The translations under genes and the position numbers were made by a program. A stretch of 64,000 bases of DNA, taken from positions 3,776,001 through 3,840,000 of the forward strand of contig CM000150.2 of assembly GCA_000004695.1 (NCBI GenBank), given 5' to 3'. This DNA comes from Dictyostelium discoideum (Eukaryota). Below are positions 1 to 16,819 of this stretch, piece by piece (within the stretch, counting starts at the first letter, position 1; every line of letters starts with the position of its first letter). Below the pieces are notes generated by a model that saw nothing but the letters and a program-made list of their open reading frames with translations, made no database searches and was not told the DNA's origin.

Positions 1-100
1 TAATAATAATAATAATAATAATAATAATAATAATAATAATAATAATAATAATAATAATAATAATAATAATAATAATAATAAAAATAATAATAATAGTAAT
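1..100. repeat. (TAA)n microsatellite; coding (poly-N) in frame 2 of kinase paralog 1
   Basis: About 33 perfect TAA units at the window start, continuous in frame with the downstream kinase exon. Confidence 0.9.
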
Positions 101-1740
101 AGTAATAGTACCAATATCAATAACAATTGTAGCAATAACAATAGTAACAATAACCATATTAATTTCAATAGCAATAGTAATATTACCAATATAAAAAATA
201 ATGACAGTAAAATAAAAAATAAAAAAGAAGAAAATAAAGTACCAATTATTGATTTAAACCAGTACGAATATGTTGAATCAATTTCACTTGGAGTTTTCAG
301 TGTTGTTGGGAAATATAAAAGAAAAGGTCAAGAAAATGAATTTATAGCAATAAAAAAAATTGATATTTTATCTCTAAATGAAGAAAAGGTAATTAATACA
401 ATATTAATATTATAGTGAAAAAAAAAAAAAAAAAAAAAAGAAAATTTTTAAATACTAGTAGTTCATTATTTTAACTTTTTTTTTTTTTTTTTTTTTTTTT
501 TTAAATTATTTAGATAATTAAAGAAATTAATAAACTTTATTCAATTAATCATCCAAATATAATTAAAATAATTGGATATTGTAAAGATCAAAAAAATTAT
601 TATATTGCAAGTAAATATTATCCAAAAGGGTCAATTAAAAAGAATACAAAACAATCACCATATAGTGAGATGAATGCAAAAAGGATATCGGTCAAAATTT
701 TAAGCGGAATTGATTATTTACATTCATTAAATCCACCAATTATTCATAGAGATATTAAATGTGATAATATATTATTAGATGAAAATGATGATCCAATTTT
801 AATAGATTTTGGATTATCATATAAAACTATTGATGATTCTACCAATTTGAAAACGTTATGTAAAAAACCATTTTGGGCATCACCAGATGTCAATAATCAA
901 GAGATACAAATCTTTAGCGAAAAAACTGATATATATAGTTTTGGTTGTACAATTTTTGAGATGATTGTTGGTTGGGAATCATATTCCAAAAAAGAAAATA
1001 ATCAACCTAATTTACAAAAATTACCAGATAATTTAACTATATCTTGTAGACTCGCATTAGGTGATATTATTGGACTTGAACAAAATTTTAAACCAGATTC
1101 AAAAGATTTACAAAAATTATCTTGGTTTAATGAATCATTACCACCAATTTTTCAATCACAAGAATTAACAAAATCGACAACCAATACCACTACCACTACC
1201 ACTACTACTACTACACCACCACCACCACCATCACCATCATCATCATCACCAAGTATGAATGAAAATAAAAAAATAGTAACATCAGATTGTTTAATTAATA
1301 GTTTCAAAGAAAGTGGTTGTCTAATTTTTCTTAATGGAGAATTGATGTATGATAATCCTTTTGATAAAGATTGTTATCAATATAATATAGTGATACCATT
1401 TGGTACTCCTCACTTAAGGGAAGTGATACATAAAGATAAAAATAAATCTAAACACCTAGACAAGATTGAATTATTTATAGATGACCATTTAGCAAAGGGA
1501 CTTGTTATAAAATTGGGAAATTTTAAATTAGATTTATCAAAAGAGTTTAAAAAAACTCCAACATTCATAGATTCAATTATCGAATATCTTTTAGATTTAT
1601 TGCAAAAAGATAATGATGATGATGATGATGATGATGTTCCCGAATCCATTATTCTCAATATAGCTGTTGGATTTTACAAATACATTTCAAATTTTATCAC
1701 ATACCAATATGTCTTAAATCAACCTTCACATTTTTGTTAA
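1..1740 (+). CDS. SAM-kinase family paralog 1 (5'-partial): protein kinase catalytic domain + conserved ~150-aa C-terminal domain; exons <1..388 and 514..1740 (intron 389..513)
   Basis: Frame 2 is open from base 1: a (TAA)n tract encodes poly-N, then ...IPIIDLNQYEYVESISLGVFSVVGKYKRKGQENEFIAIKK (degenerate Gly-loop + VAIK lysine), ending GAA AAG|gtaatt at 388. The acceptor ...tttag at 513 joins in phase to ORF 670..1740 (IIKEINKLYSINHPNIIK..., HRDIKCDN, DFGLS, DIYSFGCT). The N-terminus, presumably a SAM domain as in the paralogs, lies upstream of the window. Confidence 0.75.
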
Positions 1741-2023
1741 TTTAATATAAAACAAACAAAAATTAAATACACTTAAATGGAAATAAATAAAAAAAAAAAA
1801 AAAAAAAAAAAAAAAAAAACTATTACCAAAATACAAATATTAGTTTTACTCACTCCATATTTAATTAATTTATTTAAACACAAAAATAAATAATTTGAAC
1901 CTAATAAATTTTTTTTTATTTTTTTTTTTTTATTTTTTTTTTTTTTTTAAAATTGAAAAAGTTTGATAAGATATAAAAAGAAATTGTTTTTATTTCAAAT
2001 TGTTTAGATTGGACAAATACAAG

Positions 2024-14079: not shown

Positions 14080-15041
14080 TAAAAGTAAAACTATTTATTT
14101 TTCTATTTTACAAATTGTCATCTCCAATTTTTATGCTTGGTTGGTAAAAAAAAAAAAAAAAAATAAACAAAATAAAAAGTTATTGTAAACACAAAAAAAA
14201 AAAAAAACTAAAAAAAAAAAAAAAAAAAAAAAAAAAAGTGATTTCACCAGGGATTATTAGGAAAAATTTAATTTTAATTTTTATATTTTTTTTTTTGGGT
14301 TTACAATAACTTTTTAAAATAAATTCTTAGGTAATATATTTTTTTTTTTTATAATTATTAACATATGTTATCTTCTTTTTTATTTTTTATTTTTTAATTA
14401 TTTTCAATAGTGATGTTTATAAATAAACAAAGAAATAATGGGAAACTCTAACAAGCCTTTGAGTGATTAGATTTTCAATCATTTCCTCTTCCATAATCCA
14501 ATGTATTTATATATTAATATCTAAAATTGGAGCTTGGTTATTTAACCCACCTCTTCTATTAAAAATTATTTAAATAAAGTTAAAACTCATTAATTTTATT
14601 TTATTTTATTTTGAAAAAAAAAAAAAAAAAAAAAAAAAAAACATTACCCTGTCCTTGCATTTGTTTTAATTTTTAAAATAAATATAGAAGGGAATAAAAT
14701 ATTGTTATTATTATTAATTAAACTAAATAAATAATTAATTTTTTAGTTTCCAAAAAATTTATTTGTTTTTCAAATTTTTTTTTTTAAAAAAAAAAAAAAT
14801 AAAAATAAAAAAAAATAAAAATTAAAAGATAGGGATATTGATTTTTTTTCCTCTCAGTTGGTGTGGTGATATTAAATAATAAAATTCAATGTGTAGTAGA
14901 AAGAAAGATATTTTATATATTGTTAAAGAATGTAATTATAATTTATTTTGTTAAATTTTTTTTTTTTTTTTTTTTTTTTTTTTTTTTTTTTGTAAATTGA
15001 TTTGTTGGAATTTGAAAAAAAGGAATTGAAAATAATACTAT

Positions 15042-16819
15042 CTAAATAATTTTAAATCTTTCAGGTCTGTAAATAATGGTTTGATAAACTAAAATTCTAA
15101 CTATGTAGTGTATTGTTAATTGTAAGATATCACCATCATCACTTGATATACTAAAATTTTGAGTTAGCATAAATAAAAGGTTATTTTTCAAAAATTTAAA
15201 ATCATCAAATTCCCTATTTAAATCCAATACATAGTTCCCTATTTGTATTTGAAAAGGAAGATATTTTTTGAGAGTTTTAAAGGGTTCTAAACACTTTTTA
15301 ACAAGCTCATCCTCCTCATTCATAGGCATTGTTTCTGGTATTTTTTTTGAAAACGCCAAACAGAAAAATTGACTTTCATAATTGAATGGGTTTTCCACAA
15401 AATTTACAATAAATTTTAAACCAAACTTTTTGAAACTATCAATTATTTCATCTGAATCGATTGCCTTTTTAAAATTTGAAAATGGGATTGAAGGTGTTTC
15501 ATTAAACCACGATGCTTTGAGTAGATTTTTAGATTTTGGTCTGAGGCTTTGATCATAATTTAGAGCCAGTTTTAATACATCTTGACATTCTTGAGTTAAA
15601 TTATTGGGGATTGGGGGCGAACGACTTTGATTATTTCTTTGACCTCTCCATGGATCACTGCCAACAATCATCTCTAAAACGGTACACCCAAAACTCCAAA
15701 TATCACATTTTCTACTAAAATTTGAATTGTCTTTTTCTAAAATCTCTGGGGGTGCCCACAATGGTGTCCCACAAGCAGTTCTGAAATTGGTGTCGTTATT
15801 GATTGCTTTATATGATAAACCAAAATCTCCTAATATTGGCTCACCATTATCACTCAAATATATATTACCACCTTTGATATCTCTATGAATAATTGGTGGT
15901 TTTAATGAATGTATATAAACAATTGCTTTTAATATCGATATTGAAATCATTCTTGCCTTTGATTCACTTAATGCTGATATTTTAACAGTATCTGCGATTG
16001 AACCTTTTTTATAAAAAGGTGTCGCGATGTAATAATAATCTTTATCTTTATGATATCCAATTATTTTTAAAATATTTGGGTGATTTATTGAATAAAGAAT
16101 ATTGATTTCATTTACAATCTATATTTTTTTATTTTAAAAAAAAAATCAAAAGGTTAATATTTTGATCATAAGATTCCAATATTATATATATCTTACCTTT
16201 TCTTCTTTTAATACTGAAACATTAATTTTTTTAATAGCAATAAATTCGTTTGGTTTTGCTTTATCTCTATACTTTCCAACAGTACTGAAACTTCCTCTTC
16301 CAATATCTTCAATATATTCAAATTGATTAGTATCAAAAACTGGTGCTTTTGTAAATAACTTATTGCATTCTGAAAAATTCTCTAAAGAAAGTTTAATAGC
16401 CATTTGGAGGTCTCTATCTTTGTCACTATAAATATTATTATTATTATTATTATTATTATTATTATTATTATTATTATTATTATTATTATTATTAATATTA
16501 TTATTATTATTACTATTATTTAATTCAACTTCATTCTTTTTATAATTTGTTGAATCTGTTTTAATTCTCTTATTACTATTATGATGATTGCTGACAAAAT
16601 TATTATTTTTTAATTTTTTAAAAAGATTTTTAAAGGATAAACAATCATTAATCCAATTTGTAATAATATTGCGTTGTCGATAAATTCCAAATGATCACCT
16701 GTGATTTTATTTTGATTAAACTTTTCAATAATAGCTATACTGAAATTATTATTAGAAAGCCATTTACAAACAGAGTCAATGTCCCATTCTTCATAATTTT
16801 CACATAACACAAATGACAT
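15042..16819 (-). CDS. SAM-kinase family paralog 4 (minus strand): SAM domain + protein kinase + conserved C-terminal domain; exons ~16197..16819 and 15042..16118; apparent -1 frameshift between SAM and linker (possible pseudogene or sequence error)
   Basis: ORF 16610..16819(-) is a SAM domain (EEWDIDSVCKWLSNNNFSIAIIEKFNQNKITGDHLEFIDNAILLQIG). A second frame continues through the homologous ...DCLSFKNLFKKLKNNN... linker, poly-N and MAIK...IGRGSFSTVGKYRDKAKPNEFIAIKKINVSVLKEEK|gtaag (ORF 16182..16403). The acceptor atatag| sits before ATTGTAAATGAAATCAATATTCTTTATTCAATAAATCACCC at 16118, joining ORF 15042..15950 (HRDIKGGN, DFGLSYK, CTD ending ...ILVYQTIIYRPERFKII*). Confidence 0.6.
16438..16530. 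repeat. (ATT)n tract (poly-N coding on minus strand) in linker of kinase paralog 4
   Basis: An ATT trinucleotide run with two single-unit interruptions. It stays in phase with MAIK... downstream. Confidence 0.85.

Follow-up and report, generated by a model that had tools for sequence, protein, structure and literature searches.

The SAMK kinase cluster of Dictyostelium discoideum chromosome 1 and its apparently orphan C-terminal domain

We analyzed a stretch of 64,000 nucleotides of Dictyostelium discoideum (contig CM000150.2, positions 3,776,001 to 3,840,000 of the forward strand; hereafter the window), which is strongly AT-rich (GC content approx. 0.16–0.33) and in which positions 1–16819 hold four paralogous genes. 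The region is the chromosome 1 SAMK cluster of D. discoideum, consisting of samkA, samkC, samkD and the pseudogene samkB_ps. Each protein is laid out as an N-terminal SAM domain, a kinase, a low-complexity linker and then a C-terminal domain (CTD) of approximately 150 residues, and prediction and search show that this CTD has no detectable relatives beyond the SAMK proteins of the D. discoideum species complex. The best explanation overall, which we consider somewhat probable, is a SAMK cluster in which the CTD serves as a non-catalytic protein-interaction or targeting module.

The SAMK cluster on chromosome 1

Gene models were built from open reading frames (ORFs) and splice sites, and they bear out the four paralogous genes that a first-pass annotation of the window had delimited from the nucleotide sequence. 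samkA is present with its 3′ part (2..1740, + strand; exons <2..388 and 514..1740, intron 389..513), in which the kinase (263..1134) is followed by a T/P-rich linker (1135..1266) and the CTD (1267..1737). samkC (2203..4924, +; exons 2203..2865 and 2960..4924) comprises a SAM domain (2344..2544), a kinase (2743..3658), a P/Q/S/T/N-rich repeat linker (3659..4459) and the CTD (4460..4921), and the pseudokinase gene samkD (5297..7053, +; exons 5297..5827 and 5923..7053) a SAM domain (5357..5560), a kinase (5696..6576) and the CTD (6577..7050). The pseudogene samkB_ps is found on the − strand (15042..16819; exons 16819..16197 and 16118..15042), with its kinase at 16322..15498 and its CTD, the one used for modeling, at 15497..15045. 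Since other genes separate samkD from samkB_ps, the cluster is made of three tandem genes and one inverted copy 8 kb away. Searching the window by tblastn with the full-length SAMK proteins yielded no copies besides these four loci.

A kinase domain had been claimed for each gene, and Pfam Pkinase indeed matches all four (E-values of 5e-30 to 9e-54; 3e-42 for samkA). The SAM domain is detected at about the gathering score of Pfam SAM_2 in samkC, samkD and samkB_ps (20.2–21.6 bits against a cut-off of 20.5, with samkC slightly under it); that of samkA lies upstream of the window and is seen in the published samkA sequence. Each gene contains one phase-0 GT..AG intron of 78–125 nt, whose codon position in the kinase N-lobe is common to all four. 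The conserved NEEK|gt junction of the first-pass annotation is therefore correct as to position, but the residues are exact in samkA and samkD only (NEET|gt in samkC, KEEK|gt in samkB_ps). Because the intron position is shared, the copies arose via local DNA duplication.

Goldberg et al. (2006; “The Dictyostelium kinome,” PLoS Genet 2:e38; PMC1420674) described SAMK as a Dictyostelium-specific family, placed in the “Other” group and related to STE, with Mekk-alpha as the single STE11/MAP3K member. The sequences in Table S2 of that paper match our models, in their order along the window, as samkA, samkC, samkD and samkB_ps. Table S2 gives SAMK-A/samkA with IAIK and HRDIKCDN, SAMK-C/samkC with ILIK and HRDINSDN, SAMK-D/samkD with HGNINAKN (“lacks D166,” inactive), and samkB_ps as a pseudogene with its frameshift drawn at ...LLQIGLMIX LSFKNLF. 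Further, the translated samkD model agrees residue for residue with XP_646370.1 / UniProt Q55CW1, “Probable inactive serine/threonine-protein kinase samkD,” which together with the Table S2 matches confirms the earlier guess that these are the Dictyostelium samk kinases. The functional samkB (sequence P0008) is located elsewhere in the genome. A published map of chromosome 1 (PMC5012570) places tspC between the lipocalin DDB_G0269882 and “pseudogene samkB, DDB_G0270988,” and the fibrillarin, family III CoA-transferase, lipocalin and tetraspanin genes neighboring the cluster in the window agree with this map. Membership of the SAMK family is borne out by sequence identity, the N-terminal SAM domain, the STE-related eukaryotic protein kinase domain and, in a search with one 4-sequence CTD profile, the restriction to Dictyostelium, and the genes do not differ from those of Goldberg et al. 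(2006), down to the inactivity of samkD and the frameshift of samkB_ps. Since the 2006 paper already reported the gene family together with its dead kinase and its pseudogene, the CTD alone is undescribed; a search of the text and supplement of that paper returned no mention of a SAMK C-terminal domain.

A C-terminal domain found in SAMK proteins only

The shared C-terminal module was confirmed by BLASTP comparisons of the paralogs using the CTDs only. Scores of 30–60 bits (E-values of 3e-6 to 7e-17) were obtained at identities of 21–31%, and 40 shuffles per pair reached at most 24 bits. The similarity is far above chance. Two internal sequence blocks had been proposed in the first-pass annotation, of which G.Y.LDL..EF is closely matched in all four CTDs, but ENP(F/Y) turned out to be approximate, with ENPF exact in samkB_ps only, DNPF/DNPY in samkA and samkC, and no such block in samkD. 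The four C-terminal strings quoted there all exist but were assigned to the genes in the wrong order; the proteins end with ...HFC (samkA), ...FKLV (samkC), ...FKIV (samkD) and ...FKII (samkB_ps).

Pfam was searched with eight CTDs. No family was found at E ≤ 0.001, and the only two weak matches were both to single-member domains of unknown function. Among the known kinase-associated C-terminal domains, SARAH, OSR1_C/CCT, CNH, KA1 and POLO box showed no match to the CTD by Pfam HMM or by structure. The initial impression of a domain unlike any named one is in agreement with these results. An exhaustive hmmsearch of a profile built from the four CTDs against 1.84 billion sequences (50%-identity representatives) retrieved eight true matches, all of them SAMK-like. 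Three correspond to ORFs of the window or to strain variants, and the remaining five belong to D. discoideum samkB, D. cf. discoideum (two), D. dimigraforme and D. citrinum. Outside SAMK proteins, and outside D. discoideum and three closely related species, this search detected no CTD, and the proposed co-occurrence of CTD and kinase holds in that the CTD was found in SAMK-type proteins only.

Some of the SAMK models from sister species are unusual. D. cf. discoideum KAM9983723 (P0005) has an unrelated N-terminus and lacks the kinase N-lobe, in KAM9983749 (P0004) of the same species the CTD ends early, and D. citrinum KAN0009116 (P0007) consists of the kinase end and the CTD only and looks decayed. 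Either annotation errors or a continued decay of the family would explain these models.

An internal helix-hairpin-helix duplication within the CTD was also considered and rejected, since hhalign of the two halves gave a probability of 0.4%.

Predicted structure of the CTD and its relation to the kinase

The CTD of samkB_ps (15045..15497, −) was modeled with AlphaFold2 using an 8-sequence alignment, giving a mean predicted local distance difference test (pLDDT) of 87.2 and a predicted template modeling score (pTM) of 0.79. In the model, a helix, a beta-hairpin, two helices, a second beta-hairpin and two further helices are followed by a long helix at the C-terminal end and, last, a short strand. 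The CTD is thereby predicted to fold on its own as an alpha/beta domain containing two beta-hairpins. Foldseek found no neighbor of this model at E ≤ 0.001 in PDB and BFVD.

The first-pass annotation had suggested modeling the CTD together with the kinase as well. The combined model reproduces the secondary structure of the CTD, with a pTM of 0.61 and a disordered linker (pLDDT < 50), and consequently shows two folded domains whose mutual orientation is without confidence and no confident docking. This result bears on the possibility that the CTD is an intramolecular regulator which docks on the kinase and autoinhibits or activates it. Such a regulator would fit the position of the CTD, which is always C-terminal of the kinase and separated from it by approx. 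15 residues in samkD and samkB_ps, and the fact that the CTD was never found without a SAMK kinase, except in one decayed gene model. However, besides the lack of docking in the model, the linker is approx. 45 residues long in samkA and approx. 270 in samkC, and samkD, a dead kinase that offers a regulator nothing to act upon, still carries the CTD. We consider an intramolecular regulator unlikely. The view of the CTD as an independent module is supported by the range of linker lengths, from approx. 15 to approx. 270 residues, and by the disordered linker predicted between the two domains.

The C-terminal helix has features which could point to a tail anchor inserted into an organelle membrane. 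It is hydrophobic/aromatic, 20–23 residues long, lies 8–14 residues from the C-terminus, and is followed by a short K/R-rich tail, e.g., ...TLILYTFYYFLSNTLIYQIILHKPTSFKLVGKLK. However, the maximum Kyte-Doolittle mean over 19 residues is 0.84–1.48 and stays under the usual threshold of 1.6, K, R, H, N and Q occur inside the helix, and in the AlphaFold2 model the helix, like the last strand FK(I/L)(I/V), is packed within the domain at a pLDDT of approx. 90. On its hydrophobicity, the reading as a tail-anchored membrane protein was rejected, and we give it only a remote chance.

A borderline similarity to LARS1

When three CTD profiles were compared with the sequences in PDB, the top match that was not a coiled coil was human LARS1, residues ~986–1047 (E-values of 0.0024, 0.47 and 0.06). 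Aligned with LARS1 fragments in hhalign, the CTD profile reached probabilities of 79–86% (P of 5e-6 to 2e-5) and a score of 32, where 200 column shuffles gave at most 17, and the motif K..KK...F....K.G...LDL..EF is common to both. On this basis the CTD could be a very remote relative of the LARS1 VC domain (RBD_LARS1 plus the next strand and helix), which might bind a Rag-type GTPase or RNA. A bolder and speculative version would have the CTD descend from the tRNA/RagD-binding VC domain of LeuRS, tying the kinases to amino-acid or Rag signaling.

However, LARS1 is the best pick among 177,635 sequences, and for this reason the hhalign P corrects to an E-value of approx. 0.3–1. The match fades with better profiles, and single CTDs do not match LARS1. 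None of the eight CTDs matches PF24810 even at E ≤ 10, whereas the LARS1 fragments match this family at 50–73 bits. The Foldseek search likewise gave no structural match of the CTD model to LARS1, and the published VC topology, alpha-beta-alpha-beta-alpha with an inserted three-helix subdomain (PMC7229842), is unlike the two-hairpin model of the CTD. The likeness between the CTD and the human LARS1 VC domain (PF24810, RBD_LARS1) is local and borderline, covering a helix-strand-helix with the motif G...LDL..EF in an alignment of approx. 60 of the 150 CTD residues. It did not hold up, and kinship with LARS1 is kept as a very unlikely alternative.

Divergence of the CTD, pseudokinase and pseudogene

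The solved kinases nearest to SAMK are MST3/STK24, MST4, STK25, MST1/2 and PAK1 (PDB, E-values of 1e-31 to 1e-26), and by sequence the SAMK kinase domain is nearest to the STE20-group kinases. The CTD diverges at approximately twice the rate of the kinase. Between samkB_ps and samkB, identity is 68% in the kinase and 27% in the CTD; the corresponding values are 81% and 52% for samkB_ps and its D. cf. discoideum counterpart, and 58% and 39% for samkD and its D. dimigraforme ortholog.

samkD had been called catalytically dead in the first-pass annotation, and its catalytic loop, HGNINAKN, in fact contains HGN instead of HRD. The D. dimigraforme ortholog likewise has HGN. Since this change is common to both, the pseudokinase state is older than the species split, and the CTD was kept meanwhile, as it is retained in both proteins.

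The frameshift noticed in samkB_ps is also real. It is a shift of 1 nt within the SAM domain, between 16651 and 16641, at the same place as in Table S2 of Goldberg et al. (2006), and the frame past it is open for approx. 510 codons, broken by the shared intron alone. Logan contigs with the samkB_ps ORF are uninformative on its expression or on the frameshift, because they are collinear with the genome, keep the intron and end before the frameshift. Between SAM and kinase, samkB_ps carries a UIM-like motif, DRDLQMAIKLSLE (16412..16380, −; Pfam UIM, E-value of 0.22), which is probably due to chance, since the parent samkB has no such motif there.

In samkC, the P/Q/S-rich insert described in the first-pass annotation spans aa 455–721 (window 3659–4459) and is made of tandem repeats. 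The activation segment of this kinase additionally holds a D/N/H low-complexity insert of approx. 35 residues (window ~3270..3370, +), and its catalytic loop HRDINSDN has Asn in place of Lys. Goldberg et al. (2006) regard the activity of samkC as questionable.

With several SAMK copies catalytically impaired or frameshifted, and with truncated or rearranged models in D. cf. discoideum and D. citrinum, the CTD, as the fastest-evolving part of the protein, might have no function of its own. It would then be a tail conserved by descent that drifts under weak constraint while the family decays to pseudokinases and pseudogenes. However, at approx. 25% identity all copies, also across species, preserve the hydrophobic pattern, the motifs and the precise C-terminus, AlphaFold2 predicts a confident fold with 8 sequences, and in an AT-rich genome a neutrally drifting tail would be expected to have acquired stops or indels. 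A functionless tail is, in our judgment, highly improbable.

Neighboring genes

Between samkD and samkB_ps, genes for a fibrillarin with an N-terminal RGG/GAR tract (8225..9196, +), a family III CoA-transferase (9577..10992, +) and a bacterial-type lipocalin (11682..12230, +) are found. Gene fragments of three tetraspanin paralogs were detected at 13550..13963, 19762..20160 and 21178..21645 (all +; Pfam Tetraspanin, E-values of 5e-9 to 8e-21). The first is tspC, judged by its published neighbors, and the remaining two probably represent tspD and tspA. A 965-aa ORF at 36473..39370 (−), unrelated to the SAMK genes, contains the potassium-channel selectivity-filter motif TVGYGD and a long C-terminal region.

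Discussion

The cluster itself adds nothing new, since the literature and databases already contain the family with its SAM-kinase architecture, its dead kinase and its pseudogene. What is new is the CTD, unnamed and apparently orphan, of a kinase family that is small, restricted to one lineage and partly in decay.

MST1/2 (SARAH), MST3/MST4/STK25 (a dimerization/CCM3-binding tail) and OSR1/SPAK (CCT) are nearest to SAMK in kinase sequence and resemble it in layout, with a kinase, a flexible linker and a small C-terminal domain, which in the STE20-group kinases is an interaction domain. The mitogen-activated protein kinase kinase kinases Ste11 of yeast and Byr2 of Schizosaccharomyces pombe share with SAMK an N-terminal SAM domain and an STE-group kinase. 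In Ste11 and Byr2 the kinase stands at the C-terminus with no domain beyond it, whereas in SAMK it is followed by the CTD. The SAM domain mediates hetero-oligomerization in Ste11 and Byr2.

A putative regulatory or localization role of the CTD had been suggested in the first-pass annotation. We infer that the CTD may act as a non-catalytic protein-protein interaction or targeting module, which jointly with the SAM domain would assemble or localize the SAMK kinases. Its role would resemble that of SARAH, CCT or the GCK-III dimerization tails of STE20-like kinases, an analogy of role and not of fold. The rapid divergence of the CTD between paralogs may reflect a separate partner for each copy, and its retention in the dead samkD would suit a scaffold-type function, possibly with the pseudokinase paired with active paralogs.

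Several points weigh against an interaction or targeting module. The rapid divergence could equally be explained by relaxed constraint. The absence of the CTD from distant dictyostelids is based on a single search with a 4-sequence profile in 50%-identity representatives, the lack of structural neighbors holds for PDB and viral models only, and the AlphaFold2 model of the CTD was built on just 8 sequences. A further reading takes the CTD as a lineage-restricted fold unmatched among solved structures, which arose or diverged past recognition within the D. discoideum complex and became a fast-evolving specificity module wiring each paralog, including samkD, to its own partner; as a whole we find this decidedly unlikely.

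Functional studies of samkA–D were not found in a literature search, and any phenotype would therefore be new. The CTD, possibly a new fold or domain family, would deserve a Pfam entry and a structure. Should it prove to dock each paralog to its specific partner, the SAMK cluster would offer a compact natural case of kinase paralogs diversifying by an accessory domain rather than by the catalytic core.

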